The position numbers and the translations under genes were made by a program. From Deltaproteobacteria bacterium (GTDB lineage Bacteria > Desulfobacterota > GWC2-55-46 > JAJCZF01), in assembly GCA_029262535.1 (NCBI GenBank), contig JAJCZF010000074.1:8395-72394 (forward strand): a stretch of 64,000 bases of DNA, in the 5' to 3' direction. Positions 35,722-62,279 of this stretch are shown one piece after another; within the stretch, counting starts at the first letter, position 1; every line of letters starts with the position of its first letter. Under the pieces are notes generated by a model. The model did not search any database, was not told the origin of the DNA, and saw only the letters and a list, made by a program, of their open reading frames with translations.

Positions 35722-35722
35722 T

Positions 35723-36322: not shown

Positions 36323-36380
36323 GCGGCCCTTAAGAAGAGTAAATATAGACTCTGTGCTAAGGTAACTACTGGATTATACT

Positions 36381-39033: not shown

Positions 39034-39069
39034 CCGCACAGGCACACAGGTGTGCTTATATTTCGCGGA
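39034..39069 (+). repeat. Gene-end palindromic motif, copy 1 (ccGCACAGGCACACAGGTGTGCTTATATTTCGCGGA)
   Basis: It begins at the first base after the TAG of 37495..39033. The core is the near-palindromic GCACAC-AG-GTGTGC, followed by a T-rich tail and CGCGG. Confidence 0.7.
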
Positions 39070-39406: not shown

Positions 39407-39490
39407 ATGAAGTACGCCAAAAGACCTGTCTCCGCGATAGCGGTCCTTTTTCTCATCTTATTATCCGGTGTGTTTAGCGCGGCCTGGGCC
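39407..39490 (+). other. Sec/SPase-I signal peptide of the giant protein (aa 1-28)
   Basis: MKYAKRP + hydrophobic core AIAVLFLILLSGVF + SAAWA|D. No lipobox Cys. Confidence 0.7.
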
Positions 39491-42400
39491 GACATAGCCG
39501 GGACGCTCACGGCCCTTGAGGGCCGGGTGGATATTTTGAGGCCGGGCGAGGATAGGGCAACCCCCGCAAAGCTCTTCGACAAGGTAAGTGTCGGAGACAT
39601 TATTAGGACAAAGAGCAAATCCAAGGCCGAGATAACCTTTGTAGACGATTCGGTCATAAGGCTTGCGGCGGGTTCGCGCCTTGAGATTCAAGAGTATCTC
39701 TTTAGTGGCGGGGAGAGAAAGAGCGGCGTGGTTAAGCTCTTTAGAGGCAAGGCTCGTTCTATAATAAAGAGGCAAAAGGGAGAAAAGGTGGGCCGCTTCC
39801 AGGTCAAGACCCCGACCGCCGTCGCCGGAGTGCGCGGTACGGACTTCTTCGTATTTCATCAGCTGGGCCTTACCGGCGTAATGGTCGTAAACGGTATCGT
39901 AGACGTATTTAACCTCGATATACCCGACGTGGTCGTTACCCTGACCGCCGGAACCGCCACAACGGTCGAGGGTGACAAACCGCCGACCCCGCCGCGCGGA
40001 GCGAGCGAAGGCGAGGGCGGTAAACATGAAGACGAAACGACGCCTCTAGAGGACGACGGCGAGGGCGGTGATGGCGAGGGCGAGGGTAGTGCGGATGAAG
40101 GCGGCTCCGGCGAAGGCACAGACGCGACAAGGATTGCCGCAATCGCGCCAAGTGGTGTTGTGGACCCGGTAGATACCGGCACCCCTGAAACCCCGATAGA
40201 GCCGGTTATCGTAGAGCCGGACCTTATACCTTATGAAGGCGAGACCGGCGACACGACCGCGCCAACGGTAAATATCACGAGCGGCCCGACCCTGATAACT
40301 ACCACAACGACAGCGGGTTTTACCGTTACGACCAACGAAGACCCAACCACATTCAGTTATACACTCGACGGTGACGTCGTAGGTGGCCTTAATCTTGTCG
40401 GCCTGGCGCCCGGTGTGCATATCTTTAGGGCCGCCGGTGCGGATGAGGCCGGCAATATCGGCTATGACTCCTACACATGGTTCTCCGGCACGGCCGGTTC
40501 GACCTTTACAGGTAATTCCTACGGCACGGGCTCAACCTTCACAGGTACCGCTCTTGCGGGTGATGTCTATATGGGAACCTCCACAGACGGCTCATGGATG
40601 ATGGATATCGCTGGCGACTGGGTCGGCCCCTCCGGCGCGACATGGAATATCGACGCGGGAGGAGACGGCTTTGACGACACCGGCCTTATATGGGAGGGTT
40701 ATTGGGTAAATCAGATGGAGGGTACATACGGTTCCCCCGTATCTGGAGTTGCACCCATGTCCGGCCCGGCAGGGCTCTTATATATTACGGAAGATTATAT
40801 CGCCTCCGGCGCGGGCACGGCTACCGGCTCGGTAGATACCGGGGCCGGAACCTTCGCGCTCGGAGTGATGGGATTCGATACATATGCGGAGATACCTCTT
40901 CTCTTCGATGCTGGCATTGATGGTACATTTCTGCACAGTAGCGCGGGCAATATCGAAGGCGATCCGGCAAGCCCTGTAGTCGGCCTCATGGGCGGGGTCG
41001 ATCCGTTATGGACCGGAACGCCGGGGGTACTTTTCATTGGTCAGTATGAAAATCCGGGCGCGAGCCGTTATTTCTCGGCCCTTTTGGAGGGCGGCACCTC
41101 GGATGGAGGAGCGTTACTTGGTTATATAGGCGGCGTATCTCCGGACGCGGAGAATATCCGTGTTCTGGCCGGTCTGCTCTACGTAAAGGACGATGGCGAG
41201 GGCGGTAATACCGCAGGATACGCGCTCTCCGATAATATAGCCGGTATATTCTACCCAGAACTCGGTATGTGGGAGACTACCGGGACTTTTTCAACAGTTG
41301 ATACCGGTCCGACTACAGCGACACCCGGAGAGCTCTTTGACGGAAGCGTCTCTATAGATCAGAATAGCGGCAACAACCCGGTCGTTGGCGATATTACGGG
41401 AACGTTGGCCTTAGAGTCTTTTTCAATAGAAGATCAGGATTCGGGCATATTAGTCGGCGCGGGCGAGGGGTTATTCACGGCCACGCCGAGCGCGTCCTGG
41501 TCTGCCAGGACGGGCGGAACTGCCACGGACGGCCCGGATAGCTCTTACTACATAACCGAGATAACCGGCACGAGCTGGGCCGGTGACAATATGGGCGGCA
41601 CCTTCGCGGGTACGGCACTTAGCGCCGACAGCATCACCGACTTTTCTGGCGACATTCAGGGCGTATACGAGGTAACGGGCAGCGGCAACTGGCAGGCCGT
41701 GATGCTCGGCACGACCGAGAGTAGCCCGATTCTCTTCGGCGGCGACGTGGACGGGGAGTTCCTCGAGGCCCAGAGCCCGCTCGTAGGCAGCGGAACGCTT
41801 ACAGGTTTTATGGGTAGCGACCTTCCATTTAATCCAGGCGGCACGACCTCTTTACTAATGATGGGTGACTATACGAATCCATGCGCGGCCCGTATAGTGG
41901 CTGGAGACCTCTCCGGTACGACCGCCGACGGCGGCACTTACCTTGGTCTAATGTTAGGGCTTGCTCCGGGTGCGGCCGATACGACATTCGACGCTATTGC
42001 CGCGGGCCTCTATATAAATCCCGATGGCGTCGGCGGTTATACCGTTGGAACCTTCCTAAACGGCAGCCCGATAGATGGCTCCTTCTTCTCTGAGCTTGGC
42101 ATGTGGTCCGCTACGATGCCGCTTGGCACATTCGCAACCGACGAGGGTGTGACTACGACGGTGCCCGGTGACCTATACGACGGCAGCCCGGAGCTATTTT
42201 ATAATGCCGTGGACGGCAGGGTCGGGGGCGACATAAATGGCCATCTCGAACTGGACTCCCTAATGGTGGACGGCATGGCCGGTCCGGTACTAATCGGCGC
42301 GGGCGGCGGCTTCTTTGATACGACACCCGGCCCCGGCGCGTGGGCGGCTACGGCGGGCGGAAGCATAGACGCGGGCAACCCGTGTGCGCCGGTCGGTTTA

Positions 42401-45400
42401 TGGGTATCCAATATAAGCGGCTCTTCGTGGGCCGGAGACGAGTTTGCGGCAACCATTTCCGGGCATTCCATAGATCAGATAAATCATACGACCTTTACAG
42501 GCGATATCTTCGGTATCTACGAGATAACCGGTAGCGGCAACTGGCAGGCCGCCACGACCGGGCGAGCTATCTCTACCCCGCTGGCCTTTGTGAATGAGGT
42601 TGGGGCCGAGATATATTCGACAACACTTCTTCACGAAGGAGCCTATACATATTCCGACGGCGGCAAGTACGAATACTCCTTCCGCGAGGACGGCAGTTTT
42701 GGTTTTGGCAATAGAAGGTTGAACGACGCAAGTTACGTAAAGGACGAATACCAGGCCGGTGGCACGTATAGACATATTACCAGCCCGCCATATAACTCCA
42801 CGACCTCGACATGGGACCCGGCTCTATTCGATACGACAACGCTGGCCGTAGCGCCCGCGCCGCTCGACGCCGGTACGGTAACTTTCGCCTTCGATAATGT
42901 CACACCGGTCGGCTCTTCGAGCGGACTTCTTAACGGTTATATGGGCGGAGTCGATTCGCTCTGGGTCGGCACCGATATAGCGGTCGATTTCGTGGGAGAA
43001 TATGAGAATACCGGCTCAAGTATCTTTTACGACCCGAATATCATAAGCCACGATTATATCACCGGCGAGGGCTCGACATACGCGGGCGGCACCTACCGCG
43101 GAATATTTGCGGGTATCGACCTCGCTACCTCGCTTGACGGAAATTTTTTAGGGATATATATAGCGCCGAGCACAGAGGTCGGTTTCCTTCACGGCTCGCT
43201 CTCCGGCGCGGCAAACCCGGCGATAGGCATGGCAGATATGACCGGACTCTTAAACAGGACACCGGTCGCACCGTCGCCTAGTCCGATCAGCCTTGACTTC
43301 GCTACCAACTTTATCGAGGGTAACGATATCTGGACAACCGGCTTTGCCGGTACCTTCGACGGTGGCGGCGCGATTGCCATACCTATGTGGGAGGGCTGGG
43401 GCAATAGCATCAGTCTTGTAGACTTTACCGCGCAAAGAGATATAGGCTGGGGCATATACGGCCTCGAGCTCTTCGGCGGATACGATACGCCTACTCCGAC
43501 ATGGACGGCCATCACGGGTGGAGAGGCCGAGTTCGGCCTGCTTAAACATAACGTAAGGCGCTCCGCCACCTACGACTATACAGATGGCAGCTCTTATTCC
43601 TATCTCTTTGACAGCCATAACGAATATCGTTCAAGAGATACCGGCGAGTCTACATTTACCTACCCCGGCGGCGGCGATACGATAACGACTAGCTATTACT
43701 CAAACGGCACGACGAAGGTTGTCGATACGCTTGCCGGTACGACGACTTACGGCGCGTGGAGCCCGGCGGCTTTCGAGCAGTTCGACCTTGAAACCATACC
43801 GGTGGTCGCGGGTGAGACGTCAAGCCTCACGACGAGCGATGAAATAGACGCGCATGATAGGAACTACGGCTTCTGGCTGGCAAGTGTTTCTGACGGAACT
43901 CTTACGGAAGGCAGGCTCGACGGAACTCTTTCGGGCGGCCATTACATGACCTATAGCTCGCTAGGCACGCTCGACGGCACGCTTTTAGGTACCATCAACC
44001 CAACACTCGGCACATTTGATTCCGCCATTGTCGGTACGCGCGCCGACACAATACCGCTTACGCATATGACCGAATTCGGGGACGCTATATATAAGACACG
44101 CCGTCAGATAGAGACCGAAACGCGTTATACGAACGGTGAGTACTATACCAGCGAGCACGACCTGTCCAATATCGAAGGCGCTTATAGCTACCATAACGCG
44201 GCTGGCACGTCTAGCTCAATGACCTATAATAACGGCGGAGATACCTTTGGTTACGACTCGGCGACAGGCCTTCGTAGCTACGGCTTCTGGGACCCGACCT
44301 CCTTTGATTTATCTACACTGGCCACGCTTCCTGTTCCTCCGGCGGGCCATTCTATCCTTGCCGAGGGCTACGAGCCGTGGGATCTCGGATGGTATATCGG
44401 ATGGCAGTGGGGTTACATGGGCGGAACCGACACGCTCTGGTCCGGTGTGGATATACCGGGTAAGATCATGGGTGAGTTCGGCGACTCCATAACGCCATAC
44501 CCCGGCCAGAATATGAACGGGGTCTTTTATCACGAAACCCTATCATCCACTAACGAGCTGGTACGCTCCGGCGACCCTGCTGAGAATATGACATTCGACG
44601 GAGGCGCATATGTCGGAGACCTCGGCGGCATACGCATCGGTAGTTCGCTCGAAGGCGCCTTTATCGGCCTCTACGTGGACCCGGCCGGTAACGCCGGCGT
44701 GCTCACCGGAGACTTTCTCGGTACGCAGTTCACCGATATAAGCCTATTTGAGATGGACGGACTCTTTAACAGGCAGCAGATAGAGGCCGGCGCTTCGACC
44801 AACACACCGGCTTCGGCCTTGAACGGAAGTCTTATAGACGACTGGTCCTTTGCTTATGGCATTCAGGGCGACTTCGCCGGGTCGGGCTCGCTTTCCAGTG
44901 GAGCTTCCGGTAGTGGCTGGGGCAATATATATACATTTAACGACCGCGTCGGAGACGACGCGCTCGATTGGGGTACGATTAGCTTTATGGACTTCGGCCA
45001 CGCCTCCTCGCCAGGGCCCGACTGGGACGCGGTCTTCGCGGGTAGTGGGCGTTTCGGTATCTATAACGCCTATACGACCTACGAGGGCAGATTAAATTAC
45101 ACCGGCGGCGGCGAGTACAGTTATTCATACAGGCACGACGGCTCCGAGGCCGTGGTACATCTCATCCGCGCCGACGGCACGACACGCGACGTAACATACA
45201 ACCCGGACGGCACGCTGGGTGTAGTGGATACGCTTCTTGGCAACTCTTCGGGTTTTTGGACACCGGGTGACGACCTGTCATTTCTGGCCCTGCCCCTTGA
45301 GCTTCCCGGTGGAGAGACGGCCTACCCCGATCCGACCGACGGACCGAGCGCGTCGGATACTGGCACGGCTAATGAAGGTTACTACCTCTTAAGTGTAGCC

Positions 45401-48400
45401 GACGGCACGCTCGTCGGAGAACGCATGGCCGGGACATCGACGGGCCGTTATATATCGGAGAGGACGTTAGGTACGATAGACGGCGACCTGCTCGGAACCT
45501 ACGACCACGACGTAGATACCTTCGAGGTATTTAATTACGGTAGATGGCAAAAGACCGGTAACCTCTCGCATGTGGCAGATCTCCGGTCCGAAACGAATAC
45601 GATGGCCCACGAGCATGTCGGTTACTTTGACGATACCAGTTCCGTAAGCGGCTCTTATGAATATACCTATCACGAGGACAACAGCTTCGGTATGGCCAAG
45701 CTCACGCGGGCCGACGGCACATATACGCAGGTTACATATAGCCCGAACGGGCGTTTGGATGTCGTCGATACCGGCGGCGCGGGCAATACCAGTAATAGCT
45801 GGTGGGACAGGGGTACGATGGACCTGTCCACACTTGCCACCCCCCCGACCGTGGCGGGCATGACATTTGTAAACCTCAATACGATTGATGATTACTTGAT
45901 ATACCAGACGAGCGGTAGCTCGTTGGACGGGCTCATGGGCGAGATACCGTCGCTCTGGACCGGGCCGGGAGTCGGTATGCCAATTACCGCGCTCGGTCAG
46001 TACTCTGGTAATTACAACGGAGTATTCTACCAGGACTTTGTAGCGTCCAACGACTATACGCAGGGTAATAATGTCGTCGCCACATACGACGGCGGCGCCT
46101 ACGTCGGCCTCTTGGGCGGCGCGGACGTAAGCAGCCGTGGAGTTCTCGACGGCCTCTTTTACGCGATATATATGGACCCGGCGGGCGATAGCGGCATCCT
46201 CTCTTCTACCGATCTCGCCGGTACGAGCTACCGCGACGCCGCGGCCTTTGAGCTGGACGGCACCGTTACGAGAGAGCAGTTCGCTACCTCTGCCGAGGTT
46301 GGACTTACACCGGCCGACATGGGTTTCGCCGTTATGTACGGCAGTATGACCGGAACGCTTACGGCAGAGTTCGACGGTGGCGCTTCGCTTAACGTAACTC
46401 CGGGCTTCTCGGCCAGCGAGACACTAAGCATTGTAAATAACGCGACCCTCACCGGACAGGAGTGGGGCATCTACGGCATCTCTCTCTTCGGTACTATGGG
46501 CACTCAGACCACCACATGGTCCGGCATTGCGATGGGTCAGGGTGATTTCGGCAGGGTCCAGAGCGGCGCGGTAATGGTGGACGACCCCGGCTACTGGTAC
46601 GCCGACGTAACGAGCGGCACATTCGCAAGCGAGGCGATGAGCGCAGAGCTCCTCGGTATGTTCATTACAGACAACAAGGCCGGTATCATAGAGGGCCGGA
46701 TGCGCGGTTCATATAACGACGGCTTGGATACCTTCCAGCTGGCGAGCCTCGGTAAGTGGGAGGCCCTCGCGCCGACATTCTGGGGCGATATTACCGGCGG
46801 CCAGTTTTACGACCTTAACGGTGGGCTTGTCACACCGACCGCGCTTACGTCATTAACAGGAAGATACGCGGGCGGTTTCGTAACGCCGCACTTCGCGCTC
46901 AGCGAGGGCATACTCGCCGGTGACGCCGTTACAATAGGCAAAAAACTATTTACCGCTGACGTAACCGGCGCGTCCGATATAGGCGCGGTTATGGCGGGAC
47001 ATATGGTCGGCGTTGACGACGCCTTAACGGCATCGATTGCAACTATCTACATAGCCCCCGACGGCGGCGGCGGACAGACCGGCGGCTTATACCAGAGCCG
47101 CTCTATAAATGGAGAGTTCCAGCCGACCCAGATCTGGGCCGCCGGGGCCTCATTTAGCGAGACGGATAAGGGTCCGGTCGATGTCGCTGCGGCAAACCTT
47201 GCGACCTCGATATGGACGACCTCTTATATAGAACCCGGCATCGGCACCGTAACGGGCGGTTCGTTAGAAGGCGACTTCCTTGGTTCGGGCTCCATACTCG
47301 GAGATGTAAGGATAAGCACGAACTCCATATACAATAACGCCACGCATGTGACCGCTCCGTGGGGCACATTCGAGATGGCCATCGACAGCAAGGGCTTTTT
47401 GAATCCATTGGTTTCTAGCACTTGGAACGGTCAGGCTCGTGGCTGGAACGCCTTCGGCGCCTACTGGGACCCTGCCGCAAACGCGGGCGCGGGCGGCTTT
47501 ACGGACGACTTCGGCTTCTGGTCGGTCGATATGGTTAACGGCAATTGGAATGCGGACGGCACGCTTACCGCTGAGACGGCAAGCCTCTTTATGACACCCT
47601 ACAAGCTCGGGATAGTCACCGGCGATCTCTTCGGCGTACACGAGACGGGTGTCGCCGGAGAGCTTGGCGGACTCGGAGTTGGCACGTGGGAGAGCGACTG
47701 GCTCGCCTTTAGCGCTATCTTACAAAACGGCGCTACCGCATGGGCCGACGGACCTGTAAACGGCATCTTTGGTGATAACGGCGCGGGCGGCTTTGCCGAC
47801 ATCGACAACCTCTGGGTATTCGCCGGTTCGGCAATCGCCCCGTGGGACTGCCCGGCCACAAGCTGTGCGCCGCAGTCTACAACGGTAAACTACCTTGGCA
47901 TGCTCGGTTACGACCTGGCAGTTATCTCCCCCGGAACTTATATATGGGACTCGGAGCTTGAGATCAACGACTACGCGGAACCTGGAAGGACGACCACATA
48001 TGACGGCGGCTCCTTTTTGGGCTTTACCGGCGGGCTTCTCTCGGACGGCACGGTGGACGGACGCGTGGCAAGCATCTATATCGACCCCGAAGGCAACGTC
48101 GGTTACCTTACCGGTACGATAGACGGCGTTTACGACCCGGCGACACTCTACGCCCCGGGCGGCGGCGATTACTTTATGATGGACGCGAGCGGCCCTTGGA
48201 ATCCGACCCAGATGGTGAGCGCCGGCGCACTCGGCCTCGGCCCGGCCAACTTTTATAATAACGTAAGAACGAGCGCGGGCCTAACCGCGACGCTCAGCGG
48301 TGAATTCACCGGGCCAAGCGGTTCTATCGACGGAGCGGCCTACTCGCCGGGTGTTGGAGAGATTGCCGCGTGGACACGTTACATAGACGGCGAGCCGTGG

Positions 48401-54400: not shown

Positions 54401-57400
54401 GAGCCGTGGGGCATCTATAAGATAGAACTCGGCGGCGACTACGCAAATCCCAACGGGGCGACAGGCTTTGAGATATCGCTCGGCGGCAGCGGCTGGAAGA
54501 ATCTCAATAACTGGCAAAACCCGAATACTTCTACCTACTTTTCGGGTGATAACTGGTATGCCGATATAACCGGTAACTGGAATACGGATGGTACTCTCGA
54601 CGGCACGATAAACGGCCGCTTCCTGACGCCCTTTGCGCTGGGCACGATAAATAGCGAGGCATGGGGTAGCTACGACACGGTGAACGCCGGTTTCTGGGAG
54701 GGGCTGGTCCTCGGCGAGTTCTACGAGACGCCGCTGGCCTTCGCCGGGATCATGGATTTTGAGGATGTGGGGACCTGGGCCGACGGGCCGAACTGGTCTC
54801 TCTTCGGCGAGTATGCCAGCGCCTTTAAAGAGGTGGGAGATATTATAGCGCGCACAGGCGGACTTGACGAGCCGTGGGACTGCGCCGCAGGCCTATGCGG
54901 ACCGACCGCGGCCCCGGTAGACGTAACGATACTGGGCGAGGTGATCGACTGGGATAACGAAGTGATGCAGGTCTTGCCCAATAACGCTTCTTATGTTTGG
55001 AATACCGAACTCTACAGCTGGAACGAAGGGCCGCAGACGAGGACGACCTTTGACGGCGGCGCATTCCGCGGTTTTGCCGGAGGCGTTCTGATCGACGACG
55101 GAGTAAACTTCTTCCAGGAGGTTGATGGATATTCGGTCGCGCTCTATATAGATCCCGAAGGCAATGTCGGTTATCTTAAGGGCGACGTGGCGGGTAACTA
55201 CTACTTTGATATGTACGGAGATGAGAGGGACAATCTTGGCGCGATAATAGAGAGTTACTCATTCTCGCTCCTAAATGCCGATGGCACCTTACAGGCCTAT
55301 GAGATGAAGACTCCGGGCAACCACTCCATAACTAGCGCGGCCAGTTTCTACAGCGAGGTCGTAACGAGCGCCACGCTGGATACCATGTTGTGGGGCGGCT
55401 TCCCGGTTGGTGGAGGCAACTTCGACGCGACCGACTATAACCCCGGCGGCGACGGATGGACACGCTACATACCGGGCGAGAGCTGGGGTATCTTTGATAT
55501 CATACTTAACGGCTACCCCGGCGAATACGATAATATGAATAACGACACCACATGGATGACAATGCTTGGCGGTTCAGGCACATTCGGCTCCAATCCGGAC
55601 GGGGTCGGCGGTTATTTTGATAACGACGGCTATTGGACTGCCTGGGTCCTTGACGGCACCGCCGTAAACGGAAAGCTCACAGGTAGCATAAGCTCCGGTC
55701 GTTGGATGACTTCGACTCATTTAGGAAATATATGGGGCGACATACTCGGCTACTATGATGGTCCCGGGAATCCGACTCCCGCCAACTGGGCCGGAAAAGC
55801 ACTTGGCGTATTCGACGGCGACTCGCTGGCCTTTAGCGGCAGGATTACTACGGAGCAGCAGGCGTGGATAACCGGCCCATGGCAGAACGGCCCGCAGGCC
55901 GGAATATTCGGTAACGACTGGGGAGAGAACTTCACCTCTGTCGGCGACGTAGGGGCATTTGCGGGTTCGCTCACTCCGCTTTGGAACTGTACGGCAGGGC
56001 CGCTCGCTTGCGGCCCGCAGACGACTAATGTGACATATATGGGTGAGATAATAGATCTTGACGCGGACCTAATTCCTGTGCTGGATTCATTTCCAAATAG
56101 GGCTAATGTCTGGAACAACGATCTTTTGAGTCACAATCTCTATAATTCTACCTTTACAACATTTGATGGAGGGTCTTTCTACGGCTTTATCGGAGGCGTG
56201 CTTATGAAAGGCCTTACAGACTCTCACGATGCCGAGGGAATAGTTGCGAGCCTCTATTACGACCCCGAAGGCAATATAGGCTACTTTACAGGCGGCCTGA
56301 ACGGTAGTTACAACTACTATATCCCGTCGTCGTATATGCCGGGACCGATAAACTATCACTATAGCGTCCTTAACGCCGACGGCACATGGACGCCGACCGA
56401 AAAGGTCGCGGCCGGGGGCCATACCATAACGAGCGCCGCGCTCTTTACGAGCGAGGTCATAACCAATCCCTATATGACGGCCTCTCTCGAAGGCTCGTTC
56501 GGCGCGGGCGAGAACGGTTATATATATGGTAAGGAACATAACCAGGAGCCGTCCTACTACGCATGGACCCGTTATGTGCCGGAACAGCCCTGGGGTCTCT
56601 TCGACATCGTCTTTAACGGTTACATGTCGAGCGGACAGGGTTATCAGAATCCGCTTGCCGAGACTACATGGCAGACATGGATGGGCGGCGAAGGACGTTT
56701 CGGATATTTCTTTGACGATGGCGCCGCAGGTTTTGATTACTGGGGCCTCTGGAGCGCGGATACGGCCTCCAGCCCGTGGGGAGAGCTTAACGAGGAGAAC
56801 TACTTCGAGTCCGGCAGTCTATCGGGTCGTTACCTGACCTTTACTCATACCGGTTCTATATGGGGCGATATAGTCGGCTACTACGAAGACCCGCTCATCG
56901 GCGGCAACCCTGAGGACTGGGCCGCGAAGTCGGTCGGAGTATTTGAGGGCGAACAGCTCGCCTTTAGCGGAGAGATATCCTTCTCCACGGGATGGAACAC
57001 AGGGCCTTATTTTGATATATTCGCCGATGACGGCACCGCAAGCGCGCTTGCTACCTATGACGAGATATGGGGTATCTCCGGCAGTACACAGGCCCCGTGG
57101 TCCTGTAGCGCCGGTTGTGTCCCGCAAAATACCGATGTGCTTCACATGTCCCAGTTGTTGGCATCGGGCGCTTATAACCAGGACGGTCCGCTCATATGGA
57201 ACTCGAACATTACCAGTTATGAGCGTTACGGTTATACATACCAGACATACGACGGCGGCTCCTTTGACGGCTTTATCGGAGGACTTCTCTTAAACGGTAA
57301 TGTGGACGCGCGTGTGGCCAATGTCTACATGGACCCTGCGGGCAACGCCGGTTATATATGGGCGGTGCTTGACGGGCGTTACGGTCTTGACTTGACCGAT

Positions 57401-60382
57401 ATTGGTATTAATACGCCTTACCGCCTCATAGAGGCGGACGGCCTTTGGCAGCCGACGCAGATGGCGACTTTTGCCGAGGTGGACTTCACACCGGCCAACT
57501 TCCAGAGTACCGGTATCGTCACCAACGCCGACATGAACGCCGGGGTATCTGGCATATTCGGCGCGGGTAACGGCATGATCGACGGCGTGGAGTACCGCAG
57601 CGGCACACCGCCGACGGCGGCGTGGACACGTTATCTCGACGGCCAGCAGTGGGGCGTCTACGACCAGATACTCGACGGCTATGACGTGACACTTGGCGGC
57701 GGTACATATTCAAATCCGCTACTCGATCCGACCTTCTCAATACAGATAGGCGGCGTTGGCGTTTTCGGCTCCATAGAGACCTCACCCTTCAACTATGTGG
57801 ACAACTGGGGCTGGTACTACGGCGAGGTAAATGACGGCCCGTGGACCGGCGGTACGCTGTTAGGAAACTACGCCGGCAGCTGGATGAGCCAGCGCTATAT
57901 CGGCGACATATGGGGCGATGTGCTTGGTTACTACGACACCTCCTTATCGCCGAACGACGGCAACTGGACGGCCAAGAATATCGGTATATTCACCGGCGAT
58001 CCGCTGGCTTTCTCCGGAGAGTCTTACGAGGCCGCCAGGTGGGAGGAGGGTCCGCTTAACGCGACCTATACCGATGTTGCGGGTTCATTTACCGACCTGG
58101 CGACGATATCTCCGAGATTACACGCGGGCAGCGTTGACGCGCCCTGGTCTTGTCCGGGCGGAGTCGGCACATGCGTACCGTCTGTTACCGATGTGCTCTA
58201 TCTCGGCGACGTGGATAATACGGTAATCCCGTATCTCGCACAGCCGCTCTTATGGAACCAGAATCTTAAGAGCTATAATATAGACCTGTTAAACGACACG
58301 ACCTTTGATGGCGGTTCATTCTCAGGCTTCATAGGCGGCCTATGGGCCGGTAATGATATCGACGCCACCGCCGTCAGCCTCTATATAGACCCCGACGGAA
58401 ATGTCGGTTGGTTTACCGGAGATCTCGCGGGCCAGTACTATATGGATATAATAGCCTTCGGCACGAGGCAGCTCCTTTATGGCGACGGACAGTGGACGGC
58501 GACCCAGATGAATAGCTTTGGCAATCACTCGATATCTAGCGCGGCGCTCTTCACCGCCGAGGTCGTTACCGACTCTACGATGGACGCCGACCTCTTCGGT
58601 TGGTTCGGCGGCGGCTCCGGTTCGATATACGCTACCGAGTATACCGATAACGCAACCTACAGCGCCGCGTGGACGCGTTATATAAACGGCGAGTCGTGGG
58701 GTATATACGATATGATACTCGACGGCTACCCGGCCGCCGGCTCTTTCACGAACCCGGTTCCGGATACGACACTGACGGCGGCGGTTGGCGGAGGCGGAGT
58801 ATTCGGAAGCCGCCCGGACGGTTTCGGCGGTTATAATCCCGAGACCGGTTTCTGGCTCGCATATATCAACGGTCCCTCGTGGCAGAATAATGTAGTCGAT
58901 ACGGATATGAGCGGCCTTTACGTTTCGGAGACGACTTACGGCACCATCGACGGACGCGTTATCGGCTACTACGATAACGCCGGTAATTGGGCGGCAAAGA
59001 GCCTTGGCGTATTCGAAGGAGCGCCGCTCGATGCATGGGCCAATATGAATGATTACCTCCAGTACTTCGATACCACCTTACAGCAGGAGTATCAGGTGCA
59101 GGCCAATCTCGGTCTGCATGGAGCGACCTTCGACTTCGTAGGGCAGTATATGGACTTTAGCGCGGGCATGCATAATAGCGTGACCTTGAATACCTTCATG
59201 ACGAGTTGGAATAATATAGACTCAAATTCTACGACATATACCGGAGACTCTTTTAAGGGTTTACTCGGCATGAGGGATACGATGAATACGGCTGAAAAAG
59301 GCGACGTAGATATAGAGATGATCGCGCTTGAGCTGACCAGCGCGGGCAATCTGGGTTTTGTCAAATTATCGGGTAGTGGCGAGAGTTACTACACGCCTGA
59401 GACGGTACTGGTACAGGGCGGAGTGACACATATACCGATAGAGCTTACCGCCTTGAACCTGTCGACCTTTGCGAGCAATGTCCTTACATTCAACTACAGT
59501 CCGACTATAAAGGTAGGCGCTTTCGGCGGCGGCGGAGCGATAACGCCTGTTGACGTTACATGGGTCGATGTGGAATACGATAACGGCGCTTTCTTCTCGG
59601 ACTACGGTCCCATCGGAGGTCTGATGGGCGGTAGCTATACGGGACCCGCGACTGGAAACTGGACGATAGATACGAAGTTAACCAATTATCTCGCATCGGA
59701 TTCGGCTATTCTCCATACCCGTACCGAAGGTACGGGAGGGTGGTCTCCGGACAGCGCCTTTACTGGCAAGACTCACGCCTACGGCGCCGAGACCGATGCG
59801 AGCGAGGCTATGACGTGGATAGCCGTAGGCGATACTATGGGCAATACCAATACCTTCAATCCCGGCGCTATTACGAAGTTCCAAGCCGTGACGACAGGCG
59901 CGTGGTTCAGGACTGATCAGTTCCTTGAGATGATCGGTGTTATAGCCGGTACTGCGAATACCGCGGCGCTCGACCAGTTAAACATACCGCATGCCGAGGT
60001 TGCTCTTATGACGATGTTCGGAGCCGGAAACGGAATCGACGTAACCCTGAATAATATGAAGTTCTACGGTTACTCGGCAGGACAAGCGCCGAAGATATTT
60101 GCTACAGAGGACGTCACCGGTAATATCACCGGGACGCCGACGACCGGCAATCCCTTTACCATTAACGCGGTAAGCGGCGGCGCGGCTTCCGCACAGTTTG
60201 AGATTCAGCAGTGGGACACCGGCGTCACGCAAAAGTGGCTCGGAACGATTGACGGCGGCACCGGCACCCTGTCGGGCGGCACCTATACCGGCCCTGTTAA
60301 CTTCACAGGCGCGGCCGCCGGAGATATTAGTACCGGAACGGGGACATTTTCAGGAACGGCAGCCGGCATAGCAACACCCTAG
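39407..60382 (+). CDS. Giant secreted repeat protein, 6,991 aa (FecR-like N-domain; repeat family unassigned)
   Basis: One ORF of 20,976 nt (3 x 6,992) with no interruption, and an AGGGG Shine-Dalgarno about 9 nt upstream of the ATG. All overlapping ORFs on other frames are short or antisense. Confidence 0.9.
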   Translation: MKYAKRPVSAIAVLFLILLSGVFSAAWADIAGTLTALEGRVDILRPGEDRATPAKLFDKVSVGDIIRTKSKSKAEITFVDDSVIRLAAGSRLEIQEYLFSGGERKSGVVKLFRGKARSIIKRQKGEKVGRFQVKTPTAVAGVRGTDFFVFHQLGLTGVMVVNGIVDVFNLDIPDVVVTLTAGTATTVEGDKPPTPPRGASEGEGGKHEDETTPLEDDGEGGDGEGEGSADEGGSGEGTDATRIAAIAPSGVVDPVDTGTPETPIEPVIVEPDLIPYEGETGDTTAPTVNITSGPTLITTTTTAGFTVTTNEDPTTFSYTLDGDVVGGLNLVGLAPGVHIFRAAGADEAGNIGYDSYTWFSGTAGSTFTGNSYGTGSTFTGTALAGDVYMGTSTDGSWMMDIAGDWVGPSGATWNIDAGGDGFDDTGLIWEGYWVNQMEGTYGSPVSGVAPMSGPAGLLYITEDYIASGAGTATGSVDTGAGTFALGVMGFDTYAEIPLLFDAGIDGTFLHSSAGNIEGDPASPVVGLMGGVDPLWTGTPGVLFIGQYENPGASRYFSALLEGGTSDGGALLGYIGGVSPDAENIRVLAGLLYVKDDGEGGNTAGYALSDNIAGIFYPELGMWETTGTFSTVDTGPTTATPGELFDGSVSIDQNSGNNPVVGDITGTLALESFSIEDQDSGILVGAGEGLFTATPSASWSARTGGTATDGPDSSYYITEITGTSWAGDNMGGTFAGTALSADSITDFSGDIQGVYEVTGSGNWQAVMLGTTESSPILFGGDVDGEFLEAQSPLVGSGTLTGFMGSDLPFNPGGTTSLLMMGDYTNPCAARIVAGDLSGTTADGGTYLGLMLGLAPGAADTTFDAIAAGLYINPDGVGGYTVGTFLNGSPIDGSFFSELGMWSATMPLGTFATDEGVTTTVPGDLYDGSPELFYNAVDGRVGGDINGHLELDSLMVDGMAGPVLIGAGGGFFDTTPGPGAWAATAGGSIDAGNPCAPVGLWVSNISGSSWAGDEFAATISGHSIDQINHTTFTGDIFGIYEITGSGNWQAATTGRAISTPLAFVNEVGAEIYSTTLLHEGAYTYSDGGKYEYSFREDGSFGFGNRRLNDASYVKDEYQAGGTYRHITSPPYNSTTSTWDPALFDTTTLAVAPAPLDAGTVTFAFDNVTPVGSSSGLLNGYMGGVDSLWVGTDIAVDFVGEYENTGSSIFYDPNIISHDYITGEGSTYAGGTYRGIFAGIDLATSLDGNFLGIYIAPSTEVGFLHGSLSGAANPAIGMADMTGLLNRTPVAPSPSPISLDFATNFIEGNDIWTTGFAGTFDGGGAIAIPMWEGWGNSISLVDFTAQRDIGWGIYGLELFGGYDTPTPTWTAITGGEAEFGLLKHNVRRSATYDYTDGSSYSYLFDSHNEYRSRDTGESTFTYPGGGDTITTSYYSNGTTKVVDTLAGTTTYGAWSPAAFEQFDLETIPVVAGETSSLTTSDEIDAHDRNYGFWLASVSDGTLTEGRLDGTLSGGHYMTYSSLGTLDGTLLGTINPTLGTFDSAIVGTRADTIPLTHMTEFGDAIYKTRRQIETETRYTNGEYYTSEHDLSNIEGAYSYHNAAGTSSSMTYNNGGDTFGYDSATGLRSYGFWDPTSFDLSTLATLPVPPAGHSILAEGYEPWDLGWYIGWQWGYMGGTDTLWSGVDIPGKIMGEFGDSITPYPGQNMNGVFYHETLSSTNELVRSGDPAENMTFDGGAYVGDLGGIRIGSSLEGAFIGLYVDPAGNAGVLTGDFLGTQFTDISLFEMDGLFNRQQIEAGASTNTPASALNGSLIDDWSFAYGIQGDFAGSGSLSSGASGSGWGNIYTFNDRVGDDALDWGTISFMDFGHASSPGPDWDAVFAGSGRFGIYNAYTTYEGRLNYTGGGEYSYSYRHDGSEAVVHLIRADGTTRDVTYNPDGTLGVVDTLLGNSSGFWTPGDDLSFLALPLELPGGETAYPDPTDGPSASDTGTANEGYYLLSVADGTLVGERMAGTSTGRYISERTLGTIDGDLLGTYDHDVDTFEVFNYGRWQKTGNLSHVADLRSETNTMAHEHVGYFDDTSSVSGSYEYTYHEDNSFGMAKLTRADGTYTQVTYSPNGRLDVVDTGGAGNTSNSWWDRGTMDLSTLATPPTVAGMTFVNLNTIDDYLIYQTSGSSLDGLMGEIPSLWTGPGVGMPITALGQYSGNYNGVFYQDFVASNDYTQGNNVVATYDGGAYVGLLGGADVSSRGVLDGLFYAIYMDPAGDSGILSSTDLAGTSYRDAAAFELDGTVTREQFATSAEVGLTPADMGFAVMYGSMTGTLTAEFDGGASLNVTPGFSASETLSIVNNATLTGQEWGIYGISLFGTMGTQTTTWSGIAMGQGDFGRVQSGAVMVDDPGYWYADVTSGTFASEAMSAELLGMFITDNKAGIIEGRMRGSYNDGLDTFQLASLGKWEALAPTFWGDITGGQFYDLNGGLVTPTALTSLTGRYAGGFVTPHFALSEGILAGDAVTIGKKLFTADVTGASDIGAVMAGHMVGVDDALTASIATIYIAPDGGGGQTGGLYQSRSINGEFQPTQIWAAGASFSETDKGPVDVAAANLATSIWTTSYIEPGIGTVTGGSLEGDFLGSGSILGDVRISTNSIYNNATHVTAPWGTFEMAIDSKGFLNPLVSSTWNGQARGWNAFGAYWDPAANAGAGGFTDDFGFWSVDMVNGNWNADGTLTAETASLFMTPYKLGIVTGDLFGVHETGVAGELGGLGVGTWESDWLAFSAILQNGATAWADGPVNGIFGDNGAGGFADIDNLWVFAGSAIAPWDCPATSCAPQSTTVNYLGMLGYDLAVISPGTYIWDSELEINDYAEPGRTTTYDGGSFLGFTGGLLSDGTVDGRVASIYIDPEGNVGYLTGTIDGVYDPATLYAPGGGDYFMMDASGPWNPTQMVSAGALGLGPANFYNNVRTSAGLTATLSGEFTGPSGSIDGAAYSPGVGEIAAWTRYIDGEPWGIFDVALDGYPGAVNPCGETTWTGFMGGEGVFGSRPDGGGGFLDNNGYYLTYASPGSWDAAKVTATLDGDFMTAETFGRISGDLIGYYDASGNWAGKALGVFDGATYGFVTGLNNSFYHFYDGDDTIWDRDSISGYFGSIASPFTIPGTPVSFMAMGKVSGIWSQTWWDNFSGTGSAWDGFIGGNRSFDNKTISGGVASFYIANDGSAGILDATLDGTIYPGSIFKVDGTDLKATEKTASGYIPANFNTYLATSAVNGEITGEFAGGTGSISTVGFLQDIAFNASGTRTQWFVNPGTAKDEPWGIYKLELGGYYTNPAAATTFDMTLGGNNWRAATDYWIMDIAGNWNADQTVDGTINGRYLNLTSLGSINSGMWGSYDTDTGGVWEGVALGTFEETPLAFSGEITFATDWDTGPWWGLYGNDGLGAFDAVDDFYGVAGSLENPWDCTAGCVPQTIDVVYMGQPCSVNNQPLIWNNDLYAFDVKWNEGAFSGFIGGALLDGAATGGVRLIYLDPDGNVGYIEGTLLGDYYGESSMIPFSADGQWVATEVSDSLGYDGVDPVYAEYLHGDLGRDPYFKTTLSGGFGAGGASGFINGVDFNGDFATYGYRGWTRYIDGEDWGIFDVIIDGYQGGGYSNPNPDSTFSGLVGGSGNFGSHFVEGPSYVKNPGYWLADVNGTVTNRNLDGTAVGTFMTREAIGPIWGDLYGYHEGAAWGGKLMGVFEGDPVAYSGELLTGGTFFNTNLSPPTESDSITGLMGSLNAINPGGSTDIDLLGEYLNPNGLRLFGADFEGTASDGTAFLGIYAGLDRQGTLDGVLGGIYIRPDGVGGHIAGTLLADDLAGEFLPDLGMWRASSANFIATDLGATAELPGDLFSGGTAFDDSEVNGLVGGDIFGNMLLIAQSVVDIDSGLLIGITGGLFGTNPAPGWTAHGGGTVNNGGLDPDDLWLAQITGSAWAAGNMDGTYSGFAMNPNEMTNFSGDLRGQYEVTGSGNWQAISIGTFGAATPLNFFAGLTPRFWMTGDFNWVEQGFLNGDTYDYSYESGTNQGFGRYAPLGVNANRVDTTFFADGTTESFDRVTGLYSSGTWNEAGGEAAMAAWYGTPDSSVPSPSAFGVEAMGGWFDIYMGSTTSLWPVTTPTPTAVPVTVLAKHIGSDWQSGEPRLIYEGARYLRNDPTWGATFNDYDGGAFRFGLVGMIEADDTIDPDIVGLYIDPAGNAGLLNGVVTGTAYTDIGMAEMAGQITPRQMAMAAEVGVLPASLDSSIYRSGISNPVSMLSGTLPGGGALDSTIYEIGSSTIVDYSGPTVVQQWGTLNYVFEAGGFANPGAATTWSATMGGYDPFGPDATGLADELGYWLADTVGGTIGDRTLRADFSGNFITPTKLGTIDGSLYGLYDTAVGEWGGRGLATYESDPLLYAGEITPILMTTSAGRRDIYNYSDGSIHIIEIMDDNTYARVVEQGTGYHRVTSYFSNGKVVELDRLTGAVTETTWNPAVDVLSTILTPPTGYTGSTLTPGALTTAAGKLDMLMGGIDSLWSGTPNIPVTMMGEYDYNSGAPYIFRDWFVDSPAFPEIGFTTYDGGDYAGAIAGGIALDESMEAHFAALYLDSSGNAGLIYDPVSGNADSSIDIFNMAGGLNPYQMATAAEVGADPNVDLYWTQSGGLGDRLAGWFPDGDTTADMSNEYYRFRTLSLTNSVTGTVPAQPWGIFTGQFKYGAATFANPGVFNTWYGGLAGMDPIGAYWTGSAFADDPGIYAADIINGNWADGSFDGEIDGWFMTPNKMGPLAGNIYGLYDELDGVWGAYTIGTWEGAPYGFVSNFNNSFYHFDNTPVILAPTATTMLDGYLGSFDSPFATPGIGVNFSVMGQGVDAGSQTWFGQFSGTGSAWDGWTGGHLSNTDDTINGIVNALYIDDVGNAGILGANFFGDLLPNEVFVASGTNLTATQKATGGYTAGLFNIYLQRGRPEGGIGGGFPGQPGYIGSPGIQGLVSVESETRWFDNGTIEPWGIYKIELGGDYANPNGATGFEISLGGSGWKNLNNWQNPNTSTYFSGDNWYADITGNWNTDGTLDGTINGRFLTPFALGTINSEAWGSYDTVNAGFWEGLVLGEFYETPLAFAGIMDFEDVGTWADGPNWSLFGEYASAFKEVGDIIARTGGLDEPWDCAAGLCGPTAAPVDVTILGEVIDWDNEVMQVLPNNASYVWNTELYSWNEGPQTRTTFDGGAFRGFAGGVLIDDGVNFFQEVDGYSVALYIDPEGNVGYLKGDVAGNYYFDMYGDERDNLGAIIESYSFSLLNADGTLQAYEMKTPGNHSITSAASFYSEVVTSATLDTMLWGGFPVGGGNFDATDYNPGGDGWTRYIPGESWGIFDIILNGYPGEYDNMNNDTTWMTMLGGSGTFGSNPDGVGGYFDNDGYWTAWVLDGTAVNGKLTGSISSGRWMTSTHLGNIWGDILGYYDGPGNPTPANWAGKALGVFDGDSLAFSGRITTEQQAWITGPWQNGPQAGIFGNDWGENFTSVGDVGAFAGSLTPLWNCTAGPLACGPQTTNVTYMGEIIDLDADLIPVLDSFPNRANVWNNDLLSHNLYNSTFTTFDGGSFYGFIGGVLMKGLTDSHDAEGIVASLYYDPEGNIGYFTGGLNGSYNYYIPSSYMPGPINYHYSVLNADGTWTPTEKVAAGGHTITSAALFTSEVITNPYMTASLEGSFGAGENGYIYGKEHNQEPSYYAWTRYVPEQPWGLFDIVFNGYMSSGQGYQNPLAETTWQTWMGGEGRFGYFFDDGAAGFDYWGLWSADTASSPWGELNEENYFESGSLSGRYLTFTHTGSIWGDIVGYYEDPLIGGNPEDWAAKSVGVFEGEQLAFSGEISFSTGWNTGPYFDIFADDGTASALATYDEIWGISGSTQAPWSCSAGCVPQNTDVLHMSQLLASGAYNQDGPLIWNSNITSYERYGYTYQTYDGGSFDGFIGGLLLNGNVDARVANVYMDPAGNAGYIWAVLDGRYGLDLTDIGINTPYRLIEADGLWQPTQMATFAEVDFTPANFQSTGIVTNADMNAGVSGIFGAGNGMIDGVEYRSGTPPTAAWTRYLDGQQWGVYDQILDGYDVTLGGGTYSNPLLDPTFSIQIGGVGVFGSIETSPFNYVDNWGWYYGEVNDGPWTGGTLLGNYAGSWMSQRYIGDIWGDVLGYYDTSLSPNDGNWTAKNIGIFTGDPLAFSGESYEAARWEEGPLNATYTDVAGSFTDLATISPRLHAGSVDAPWSCPGGVGTCVPSVTDVLYLGDVDNTVIPYLAQPLLWNQNLKSYNIDLLNDTTFDGGSFSGFIGGLWAGNDIDATAVSLYIDPDGNVGWFTGDLAGQYYMDIIAFGTRQLLYGDGQWTATQMNSFGNHSISSAALFTAEVVTDSTMDADLFGWFGGGSGSIYATEYTDNATYSAAWTRYINGESWGIYDMILDGYPAAGSFTNPVPDTTLTAAVGGGGVFGSRPDGFGGYNPETGFWLAYINGPSWQNNVVDTDMSGLYVSETTYGTIDGRVIGYYDNAGNWAAKSLGVFEGAPLDAWANMNDYLQYFDTTLQQEYQVQANLGLHGATFDFVGQYMDFSAGMHNSVTLNTFMTSWNNIDSNSTTYTGDSFKGLLGMRDTMNTAEKGDVDIEMIALELTSAGNLGFVKLSGSGESYYTPETVLVQGGVTHIPIELTALNLSTFASNVLTFNYSPTIKVGAFGGGGAITPVDVTWVDVEYDNGAFFSDYGPIGGLMGGSYTGPATGNWTIDTKLTNYLASDSAILHTRTEGTGGWSPDSAFTGKTHAYGAETDASEAMTWIAVGDTMGNTNTFNPGAITKFQAVTTGAWFRTDQFLEMIGVIAGTANTAALDQLNIPHAEVALMTMFGAGNGIDVTLNNMKFYGYSAGQAPKIFATEDVTGNITGTPTTGNPFTINAVSGGAASAQFEIQQWDTGVTQKWLGTIDGGTGTLSGGTYTGPVNFTGAAAGDISTGTGTFSGTAAGIATP
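39503..39994 (+). other. FecR-like domain (aa ~33-196)
   Basis: The pattern G.V.I.R.G......A..GD.I..GD.I.T...S.A.I.F.D.S.I.L...S.L.I, followed by VKTPTAVAGVRGTDFFV, is typical of the FecR periplasmic sensor fold. Confidence 0.6.
40001..40126 (+). other. Acidic Gly/Glu/Asp low-complexity linker (aa 199-240)
   Basis: SEGEGGKHEDETTPLEDDGEGGDGEGEGSADEGGSGEGTD, read directly. Confidence 0.8.
40250..40483 (+). other. Ig-like (bacterial Ig / HYR-like) domain (aa ~282-359)
   Basis: DTTAPTVNITSGP...TAGFTVT...FSYTLDG...LAPGVHIFRAAGADEAGN is the common surface-protein Ig-like pattern. Confidence 0.5.
40484..59039 (+). repeat. About 17-18 long (280-500 aa) degenerate protein repeats in at least four subtypes
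   Basis: In-frame (L/I/F)Y(I/V/L/M)xPxG-type anchors start at 41177, 42008, 43154, 44669, 46166, 47045, 48074, 48998, 49928, 50855, 52025, 53204, 54116, 55142, 56252, 57323 and 58379, with a degenerate one at 59327. Confidence 0.8.
59040..60379 (+). other. Distinct C-terminal region (~445 aa) ending in a Gly/Thr-rich tail
   Basis: The WTRY/WGIFD/YxDPxGN motifs stop after ~59.0 kb. The sequence becomes richer in N/Q/M/F/K and ends ..GTGTLSGGTYTGPVNFTGAAAGDISTGTGTFSGTAAGIATP. Confidence 0.5.
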
Positions 60383-60445
60383 CCACACACCACACAGGTG
60401 TGCTTCTATTTTCGCGCCACACAGGTGTGGTTTTACTTTCGCGGA
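60383..60445 (+). repeat. Gene-end palindromic motif, two tandem copies directly after the giant-gene stop
   Basis: ccacacaCCACACAGGTGTGCTTCTATTTTCGCG followed by CCACACAGGTGTGGTTTTACTTTCGCGGA. It starts at the first base after the TAG. Confidence 0.7.
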
Positions 60446-60502
60446 GAGAGTTCTTAGAGGACTGCTTGTGTCTTGCCCGCGTCTTTAATATGTAGATATG
60501 TA

Positions 60503-60543
60503 GAAAGGGACCGCCGGTATATTCGGCGGTCCCTTTCTTTTTG
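60503..60543. terminator. Strong bidirectional intrinsic terminator
   Basis: A perfect 14-bp stem gaaagggaccgccg / cggcggtccctttc with a 7-nt loop. It has a T-run on the plus side and the complementary A-rich flank for the minus side, and it sits between the convergent giant gene and the adaptor gene. Confidence 0.8.
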
Positions 60544-61756: not shown

Positions 61757-62279
61757 GGCTTTCTACTCCTTATAGAATGGCAAAGTTAAGAGCAAACCTT
61801 TAGCGCGTACGATAAACTTGCGTCACCTAGAAACTCTATCCGCGAAATAGGAGCACACCTGTGTGCCTTTTCCAGTGCAAGATTTATTCCTTCTTAATTA
61901 CTGACGCGTTACTACAAAAGCTGACGCTTCTACGGACTCTATTCGCGAAATAGGAGCACACCTGTGTGCCTTTTCCAGTGCAAGGCTTATTACTCCTTAA
62001 TTGTTGACGCGTTACTATAACACTTGACGCTTCTATGGACTCTATCCGCGAAATAAGAGCACACCTGTGTGCCTTTTCCAGTGCAAGGCTTATTACTCCT
62101 TAATTGTTGACGCGTTACTATAAAACCTGACGCTGCTATGGACTCTATTCGCGAAATAAGAGCACACCTGTGTGCCTTTTCCAGTGCAAGGCTTATTACC
62201 TCTTAATTACTGACGCGTTACTACAAGAGCTGATGCTTCTACGGATTCTATCCGCGAAATAAGAGCACACCTGTGTGCC
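61744..62279 (-). repeat. Tandem array: one 124-bp unit plus four 103-bp units, each with the palindromic motif, a Shine-Dalgarno and TTGCACTGGAAAAG
   Basis: The unit anchor ttttccagtgcaa occurs at 61744, 61868, 61971, 62074 and 62177. The palindrome gcacacctgtgtgc occurs at 61853, 61956, 62059, 62162 and 62265. Confidence 0.9.

Follow-up and report, generated by a model that had tools for sequence, protein, structure and literature searches.

A giant FecR-headed protein built by nested duplication of one module family, and its TPR-barrel partner, in a member of the Desulfobacterota

The type 11 secretion family (Slam/TXISS) is defined by the combination of a TPR domain with a 14-stranded DUF560 barrel, a definition that excludes the 16-stranded PgaA (PMC8406197). 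The 2021 survey of DUF560 proteins makes no mention of Desulfobacterota or Deltaproteobacteria (PMC8406197), and a survey of type 11 secretion system (T11SS) cargo mentions neither of these groups, nor FecR (PMC12282271). The locus described here lies in a 64,000-nucleotide stretch of DNA from a Deltaproteobacteria bacterium of the phylum Desulfobacterota (contig JAJCZF010000074.1, positions 8,395 to 72,394), referred to below as the window. It comprises a giant gene, which encodes a protein of 6,991 residues, and upstream of it the gene of a TPR-barrel protein, the partner:

37495 to 39033, plus strand: partner gene, encoding a 512-residue outer-membrane protein with a signal peptide, a TPR region of about 190 residues and a 14-stranded beta-barrel
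39407 to 60382, plus strand: giant open reading frame (ORF), 6,991 residues in a single frame without internal stop, enclosing the repeat region 40484-59039

The likeness to type 11 systems resides in the partner, which joins a periplasmic N-terminal TPR domain to a 14-stranded barrel and passes the gathering score of SlipAM, and in the gene order, with the barrel gene adjoining that of a Sec-exported protein, here the presumed cargo. However, the SlipAM match is marginal, with BBP2_2 and DUF2860 scoring higher, and the hosts are Desulfobacterota rather than Proteobacteria. The presumed cargo is 1,000-7,000 residues long, begins with a FecR domain and, as far as its sequence tells, does not have the TbpBBD/lipoprotein-C 8-stranded barrel of known cargo.

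Two-partner secretion (T5b, FhaC/FHA) also relies on a two-gene cassette of a barrel and a very large, Sec-exported, beta-rich protein, and the conserved N-terminal domain of the giant protein could be a targeting element of the kind. In contrast to that system, Pfam finds no POTRA, ShlB or TPS (Haemagg_act) domain in either cassette protein, and the body of the giant protein consists of discrete modules instead of a continuous beta-helix. The partner barrel has 14 strands, whereas TpsB barrels have 16. Giant adhesins of the LapA/RTX and BIg-repeat types share further traits with the giant protein: they are huge, acidic and poor in Cys, and tandem all-beta modules, diverged in their DNA, determine how long they are. 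Genes for cyclic di-GMP (c-di-GMP) signalling also lie near the giant gene in the window. Unlike LapA/RTX proteins, the giant protein has an N-terminal signal peptide for Sec, not type 1, export, no RTX repeats (no HemolysinCabind match) and no adjacent type 1 system. Its module of about 300 residues has no detectable relation to the Ig-like repeats of about 100 residues in BIg-repeat adhesins.

The FecR domain (PF04773) is held in common with FecR/PupR and with Leptospira LipL45 and Lsa33, but the NCBIfam models Lsa33 and LipL45 match this domain only, scoring 59.3 against a cutoff of 420 and 47.5 against 350, respectively. Unlike FecR anti-sigma proteins, the giant protein has no cytoplasmic anti-sigma domain or membrane anchor, its FecR domain following a cleavable signal peptide, and no sigma factor or TonB-dependent receptor occurs among the neighbouring genes scanned. 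In kind, the locus would be a giant modular surface protein served by an outer-membrane partner of its own. What appears new is the module, the FecR head, and a partner that is Slam-like, occurs outside Proteobacteria and has a non-canonical presumed cargo. The repeat architecture is as expected of giant adhesins, and it is the conserved cassette that deserves to be pursued.

One module family in the giant protein

The original prediction, made from the letters of the DNA alone, divided the repeat region into units of subtypes A, B, C, D and x. These subtypes are not different domains. A hidden Markov model (HMM) of the module, started from four A units and then refined by iteration against the giant protein, picks up every subtype with E-values of 1e-20 to 1e-108, and 17 copies can be aligned from end to end (alignment A1), so that A, B, C, D and x are diverged copies of one module. 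The copies are 19-51% identical to one another, the invariant columns are Gly and Tyr, and in the unit tree A is coherent and D loose. With the module profile, hhalign recognizes an 18th, variant module at residues 6601-6868 (probability 99%, E 6e-18). The giant protein thus totals 18 modules, which are accompanied by seven copies of a mini-domain, in the following order:

41060 to 41884, plus strand: module U01, type C (HMM, alignment, tree)
41885 to 42631, plus strand: module U02, type C (HMM, alignment, tree)
42632 to 42865, plus strand: mini-domain copy 1
42866 to 44107, plus strand: module U03, type D, interrupted by mini-domain copy 2 (HMM, alignment)
43559 to 43813, plus strand: mini-domain copy 2, inside U03
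44108 to 44344, plus strand: mini-domain copy 3
44345 to 45622, plus strand: module U04, type D, interrupted by mini-domain copy 4 (HMM, alignment)
45080 to 45310, plus strand: mini-domain copy 4, inside U04
45623 to 45859, plus strand: mini-domain copy 5, with a sub-threshold RHS_repeat match
45860 to 46936, plus strand: module U05, type D (HMM, alignment, tree)
46937 to 47842, plus strand: module U06, type x (HMM, alignment, tree)
47843 to 48877, plus strand: module U07, type A, opening with a Cys loop (motif, HMM, alignment, tree)
48878 to 49732, plus strand: module U08, type B (motif, HMM, tree, block alignment)
49733 to 50701, plus strand: module U09, type A, Cys loop (motif, HMM, tree, block alignment)
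50702 to 51475, plus strand: module U10, type C, opening the second super-block (HMM, tree, block alignment)
51476 to 51712, plus strand: mini-domain copy 6
51713 to 52687, plus strand: module U11, type D (HMM, tree, block alignment)
52688 to 52915, plus strand: mini-domain copy 7
52916 to 53986, plus strand: module U12, type D (HMM, tree, block alignment)
53987 to 54874, plus strand: module U13, type B (motif, HMM, tree, block alignment)
54875 to 55981, plus strand: module U14, type A, Cys loop (motif, HMM, tree, block alignment)
55982 to 57097, plus strand: module U15, type A, Cys loop (motif, HMM, tree)
57098 to 58144, plus strand: module U16, type A, Cys loop, the unit modelled with AlphaFold2 (motif, HMM)
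58145 to 59176, plus strand: module U17, type A, Cys loop (motif, HMM, tree)
59177 to 60010, plus strand: module U18, terminal variant, residues 6591-6868 (hhalign)

The motifs on which the subtypes had been founded are present where they were reported. The C motif E(V/I)TGSGNWQA is found at nt 41669, 42521 and 51356, the A motif WTRY..(E/Q)xWG at 48371, 50228, 55457, 56564, 57623 and 58670, and the B motif EPWGIYK(L/I)ELGG, reported near 49.3 and 54.4 kb, at 49301 and 54401. The 17 anchors are also real, at residues 591, 868, 1250, 1755, 2254, 2547, 2890, 3198, 3508, 3817, 4207, 4600, 4904, 5246, 5616, 5973 and 6325, and their spacing of 277-505 residues equals the 831-1515 nt claimed; the pattern as originally written matches 10 of them, the rest being degenerate variants. 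Composition does not explain these motifs: in 500 residue shuffles the four subtype and loop motifs were never found, and the strict anchor pattern occurred 0.06 times on average. A dot-plot of fragment-against-fragment BLASTP comparisons shows strong and nested periodicity.

The seven Y-x-Y-x-x-DG sites that had been taken to mark type D stand at the places given, but they belong to the separate mini-domain (about 80 residues, with Y-x-Y...DG hairpins), of which they are the seven copies. Five copies lie between modules, and the other two are inserted at the same loop of U03 and U04. The mini-domain is present in 21 of the 149 best homologues of the family, the sample behind all counts out of 149 below.

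Cysteines are concentrated in the A units, as had been noticed, with 14 of the 16 residues located there and 12 of these in six W(D/N/S)C-x3-6-C-x-P loops, whose Trp codons are confirmed at 47843, 49733, 54875, 55982, 57098 and 58145. Paired-Cys conservation does not extend to the homologues, as the loop occurs in only 1/149 of them and is not a feature of the family. The W-x-C...C-x-P loop is instead private to the A lineage of the giant protein. That six copies, 35-44% identical elsewhere, have all kept it suggests that it is maintained, and the Cys pairs probably staple a short inter-module loop via a disulfide.

The order of the subtypes had also suggested an ancient duplication of a multi-unit super-repeat. 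Residues 3087-3732 and 4791-5482 align in one high-scoring segment pair (HSP) of 712 columns, with 40% identity and an E-value of 6e-124, that covers the tail of the preceding unit, B and A. A second HSP, of 574 columns (32% identity, E 1e-52), joins residues 829-1377 to 3781-4339 across C, mini-domain and D; this alignment resumes at 1488-1800 against 4350-4649, its offset having moved by one mini-domain length, that of the copy inside U03. The mini-domains are 17-46% identical in pairs, which is too low for them to confirm the colinear pairing alone. In the unit phylogeny, the C clade (82% bootstrap) and the B clade (83%) are each represented in both halves. Judged from these protein alignments, at least two multi-module blocks, C-mini-D-mini-D and B-A, have been duplicated, with their order kept in both halves. 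The same comparisons show that the array grew by nested duplication, through tandem copies of single modules as well as multi-module blocks, all of them old. The part of the claim that concerns duplicated colinear blocks accordingly stands, while a single event embracing the whole super-repeat is not proven. The most parsimonious history has a larger super-unit duplicated once, long ago, with local gains thereafter; two block duplications made independently would fit equally well.

The age of these events is read from the DNA. Tandem Repeats Finder (TRF) detects no tandem array in the module region, and the longest exact repeat between units is 19 nt. Patches of up to 190 nt reach 68-80% identity, and a few of 24-38 nt reach 84-92%. 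With DNA similarity nearly gone, the duplications must be old, which agrees with the divergence among the proteins and with the original view of old divergence over recent slippage. The absence of any longer exact repeat leaves slippage and misassembly without plausibility as sources.

An AlphaFold2 (AF2) model of the A unit U16, with the 17 paralogues as alignment (pLDDT 77, pTM 0.80), is all-beta and consists of meandering hairpins with strands of 12-23 residues. In this model, the anchor Y-x-D-P-x-G-N-x-G forms the turn that joins strands 68-78 and 84-95, and WTRY...WG(I)(F/Y)D forms a beta-hairpin (175-180 and 185-193). None of the conserved residues looks catalytic. The module has no match in Pfam, NCBIfam, PDB sequences, PDB folds or BFVD; the profile search of PDB sequences returned a chance hexokinase match only, and Foldseek of the model against PDB and BFVD gave nothing at E<=0.001, with TM-scores not exceeding about 0.2. 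Beta-barrels predominate among the weak PDB matches, a hint only.

A FecR-headed family coupled to a TPR-barrel gene

The module array of the giant protein is framed by a head and a tail:

39407 to 39490, plus strand: Sec signal peptide, residues 1-28, with cleavage between ...SAAWA and DIAG (read from the sequence; no lipobox)
39491 to 39991, plus strand: N-terminal FecR domain, residues 29-195 (Pfam PF04773, E 2e-14), the conserved family head
39992 to 40486, plus strand: acidic Gly/Glu/Asp linker followed by a short beta-rich segment, residues 196-360 (read from the sequence)
40487 to 41059, plus strand: possible degenerate half-module, residues 361-551 (BLASTP likeness of residues ~400-500 to residues ~700-800)
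60011 to 60379, plus strand: conserved C-terminal tail of about 125 residues, residues 6869-6991, ending in ...GTFSGTAAGIATP and kept in homologues

Beyond the FecR domain, whole-protein scans with Pfam and NCBIfam find no match in the giant protein, and at E<=10 Pfam matches neither the N-terminal linker region nor residues 6591-6991, which hold the terminal module and tail. The beta-rich segment after the linker may be Ig-like, to judge by its looks. The half-module candidate receives no significant score from the module HMM. The mature protein is about 732 kDa, with 806 Asp and Glu against 218 Lys and Arg and a pI of about 4; Gly makes up 15.7% of the residues, Thr 9.8% and Cys 0.23%.

An exhaustive HMMER search of 1.84 billion representative proteins (E<=0.001), in which the giant protein is identical to entry P0001, recovered a module family of 492 representatives, 229 of them at E<=1e-30. 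Among the 150 best matches listed, the giant protein is the largest member, with 18 matched stretches; the others have at most 4,121 residues and 2-11 such stretches. A FecR domain stands at the N-terminus in 99 of the 149 best homologues, and 117 close at the very C-terminus with the terminal module and tail, while minimal members of about 1,000 residues consist of FecR and one terminal module with tail. The plan of the family is a signal peptide, a FecR domain, 1-18 modules and the terminal tail. This comparison shows an invariant core, the FecR head and the terminal module with tail, and a variable extension made of the internal modules. Two consecutive FecR domains occur in some homologues (for example P0002, P0004 and P0007), and tandem family genes, in which a second FecR head directly follows the first tail, are seen at L021 3283-8101 and L018 3820-5898.

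The named carrier genomes belong mainly to Desulfobacterota (Desulfobacteraceae, Syntrophales and Syntrophorhabdaceae), with Desulfobotulus alkaliphilus and Geomonas azotofigens as cultured carriers and Omnitrophota and Thermodesulfovibrionales (Nitrospirota) as outliers. The cassettes of the two cultured carriers, strains ASO4-4 (L019) and Red51 (L023) respectively, encode FecR-headed proteins of about 1,000-1,260 residues. Family members that were checked bear no protein name, being labelled "FecR domain" or "TPR protein" at most. The family is undescribed, and the giant protein is an extreme new member of it.

The partner has a signal peptide of its own and an aromatic C-terminus. TPR families of Pfam match it at E-values down to 9e-20, and its barrel passes the gathering scores of BBP2_2 (30.8 bits), DUF2860 (30.1 bits) and, marginally, SlipAM (the DUF560 family, PF04575; 24.4-24.8 bits against a cutoff of 22, with partial coverage). 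Across 35 members of the partner family, BBP2_2 matches 26, DUF2860 18 and SlipAM 13, and some members match TPR_Slam. The AF2 model of the partner (pLDDT 88) shows 11 helices at residues 36-223 and exactly 14 strands at 227-511. Foldseek places the whole chain closest to the exporters BcsC (E 8.5e-13) and PelBC and the barrel alone closest to the 14-stranded OmpG and CymA; its matches include no solved Slam structure.

Related loci were collected with an alignment of six A units. In 13 of the 13 with enough upstream DNA, the FecR-headed gene is directly preceded by a gene for a full-length homologue of the partner (30-37% identity, E 1e-72 to 1e-105). The reverse also holds: starting from three partner homologues, the two most distant full-length ones included, the next gene is FecR-headed in 3/3. 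Coupling between the FecR-headed gene and the gene of the TPR and 14-stranded outer-membrane barrel protein before it is strict.

In nine loci, a periplasmic chaperone gene directly follows the FecR-headed gene:

Skp/OmpH-like gene in seven loci: L002 18997-19518; L003 17228-17749; L011 ~8771-9286; L015 ~6257-6694; L016 ~8478-9026; L022 ~9009-9443; L027 10443-10955
SurA_N-like gene in two loci: L001 21291-22079; L012 ~4864-5208

The window carries neither type of gene downstream of the giant gene, and the chaperone gene is a facultative third component of the cassette. Its presence fits the transit of an unfolded, beta-rich client. A gene for a CHASE2-guanylate/adenylate cyclase adjoins the cassette at L002 19531-21498 (minus strand) and L028 14353-16470 (plus strand), a hint that CHASE2 signalling and FecR-headed proteins may be connected.

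Possible role of the cassette

On balance, the giant, acidic, nearly Cys-free, all-beta modular protein is probably Sec-exported and handled by the barrel as a surface fibre or adhesin. After export by Sec, the barrel would pass the protein through the outer membrane, or anchor it there, in a Slam/type-11-like or two-partner-like manner. The docking or targeting element may be the FecR head, the terminal module or both. The module array would form a long surface fibre, serving as an adhesin or matrix protein, whose reach would be set by the number of modules. Acidity, scarcity of Cys and abundance of Gly are typical of extracellular proteins and were counted in favour of surface exposure. A more specific proposal is tentative. 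Under it, the barrel, the FecR-headed protein and the optional Skp-like chaperone could make up an unrecognised outer-membrane secretion or anchoring cassette, distantly related to Slam/type 11 and recognising its cargo by another signal (the FecR head, the terminal module with tail, or both), and the module could represent a new all-beta fold, up to 18 units of which would polymerise in cis to make a surface fibre.

Several observations weigh against the surface fibre. The partner is only a marginal Slam match (24.4 bits against 22; 13/35 members), and the best structural matches of its whole chain are exporters of exopolysaccharide. By the sequence test, the giant protein has no C-terminal 8-stranded barrel of the kind that defines known type-11 cargo, and its module model was built from only 17 paralogous sequences. 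The signalling genes upstream of the cassette differ in other loci and are not conserved. Literature searches on giant FecR proteins, on Desulfobacterota T11SS and on the adhesins of sulfate-reducing syntrophs turned up no account of the family; localisation and function are predicted. Finally, FecR domains are classically periplasmic protein-protein interaction domains, and the giant protein could for this reason remain in the periplasm.

This last point is the root of the leading alternative, in which the giant protein is not secreted and stays under the outer membrane as a periplasmic or envelope-spanning scaffold, or as a sensor that forms the extracytoplasmic arm of a signalling pathway, with its FecR head bound to the periplasmic TPR of the partner much as FecR binds FecA. 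The role of PF04773 as a periplasmic interaction domain, the CHASE2-guanylate cyclase genes beside the cassette in two loci, and the two-component or chemosensory genes near several cassettes are all in keeping with it. However, a periplasm could hardly accommodate 18 modules in a chain of 732 kDa, and the signalling neighbours vary from locus to locus while the barrel alone is constant. Furthermore, a module count that ranges from 1 to 18 is typical of surface stalks, and extreme acidity and few Cys are typical of extracellular proteins. A scaffold or sensor is unlikely, and less likely than the barrel-handled surface protein.

Also less likely, and of rather low probability, is a role of the TPR-barrel in exporting exopolysaccharide, as a porin of the BcsC/PelB/PgaA type, with the FecR-headed protein as a matrix or polysaccharide-binding component instead of its cargo. 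The whole-chain Foldseek result, led by BcsC and PelBC, and the c-di-GMP genes upstream in the window speak for such a porin. Against this, the barrel has 14 strands and not the 16 of PgaA and BcsC, and the TPR domain of the partner, at about 190 residues, is short. No glycosyltransferase or polysaccharide synthase is conserved in the cassettes examined, in which the FecR-headed gene is the sole invariant neighbour.

A polymorphic toxin of the RHS/YD-repeat type is very improbable, as is a related protein that forms shells. The cue for it is a weak RHS_repeat match (13.3 bits, E 0.12) to one mini-domain copy, which falls under the 22-bit cutoff and concerns one of two copies scanned singly; whole-protein Pfam scans at E<=0.1, which covered all seven copies, found no RHS match. 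In addition, the copies are isolated stretches of about 80 residues with no long YD array, the bulk of the protein is a different module, and Pfam and NCBIfam scans found no toxin, PAAR, VgrG or immunity genes. On the sub-threshold score, the missing array and the missing toxin genes, the YD toxin was rejected. That the periodicity is an artefact of composition bias, recent slippage or repeat misassembly has a negligible chance despite the strongly biased composition (Gly 15.7%, Thr 9.8%), being refuted by the near-zero motif matches in shuffles, module HMM E-values that reach 1e-100, 492 homologous representative proteins, and DNA with no repeat above 19 nt to drive slippage or misassembly.

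Surroundings of the locus and significance

Directly upstream of the cassette, at 25175-37331 of the window, lies a Wsp-like chemosensory cluster with genes for an HD-GYP-type response regulator, CheR-TPR, NIT-MCP, CheA-CheW-REC, CheB, a CheC-like protein and PAS-GGDEF, and a second regulator, REC-HD_5, is encoded at 15679-16797 on the minus strand. As context only, the cluster suggests c-di-GMP-linked control of surface behaviour. On the other side, the giant gene is closed by a terminator:

60502 to 60538, plus strand: intrinsic terminator 3' of the giant gene, with a 16-bp G+C-rich stem followed by a T-tract

Past this strong terminator, the downstream HlyD and FtsX/MacB genes, which are MacAB-like, lie on the opposite strand. 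The gap between these two minus-strand genes is occupied by a 103-nt tandem repeat (61833-62279; 4.3 copies, 91% match), each unit of which contains the palindrome GCACACAGGTGTGC followed by TTATTTCGCGGA. Copies of the palindrome also stand shortly after the stop codon of the partner gene (39043-39054) and, twice, shortly after that of the giant gene (60391-60402 and 60418-60429), and a further copy is found at 11032-11043; the 9 matches in all compare with an expectation of 0.06. A REP/MITE-like element is one possibility for it, a protein-binding site another.

Scans for Rfam families, riboswitches included, were negative for both the window and the 373-nt leader. G+C content is 55-59% within the giant gene (window 40001-60000) and about 48-52% in the flanking 40 kb, a rise that probably stems from the Gly/Ala/Asp/Thr-rich composition and not from foreign origin. 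Antisense ORFs of 150-351 residues inside the giant gene (48281-49270, 53462-54517, 50581-51201, 49973-50524 and 56087-56539, all on the minus strand) are, most likely, side effects of the bias in its codon composition rather than genes. Window proteins that were checked are singletons at 90% identity. The nearest named relatives of the cassette are metagenome-assembled genomes (MAGs) of Thermodesulfobacteriota, which points to a poorly sampled lineage as the source.

In environmental anaerobes, giant surface proteins govern attachment to minerals, to partner cells and of the anaerobes to one another, and Desulfobacterota include sulfate reducers, syntrophs and electroactive relatives of Geobacter. 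Surveys of adhesins in these groups use domain keywords, and a family such as this one, with no annotated adhesin domain, is missed by them. If the Slam-like pairing is true, it would extend type-11-like secretion beyond Proteobacteria and to very large cargo without the canonical C-terminal barrel, an extension that the published surveys left open for non-canonical T11SS clusters. Ultimately, the giant protein is a clean natural case of a core of about 1,000 residues growing to 7,000 by nested duplication of modules and blocks.

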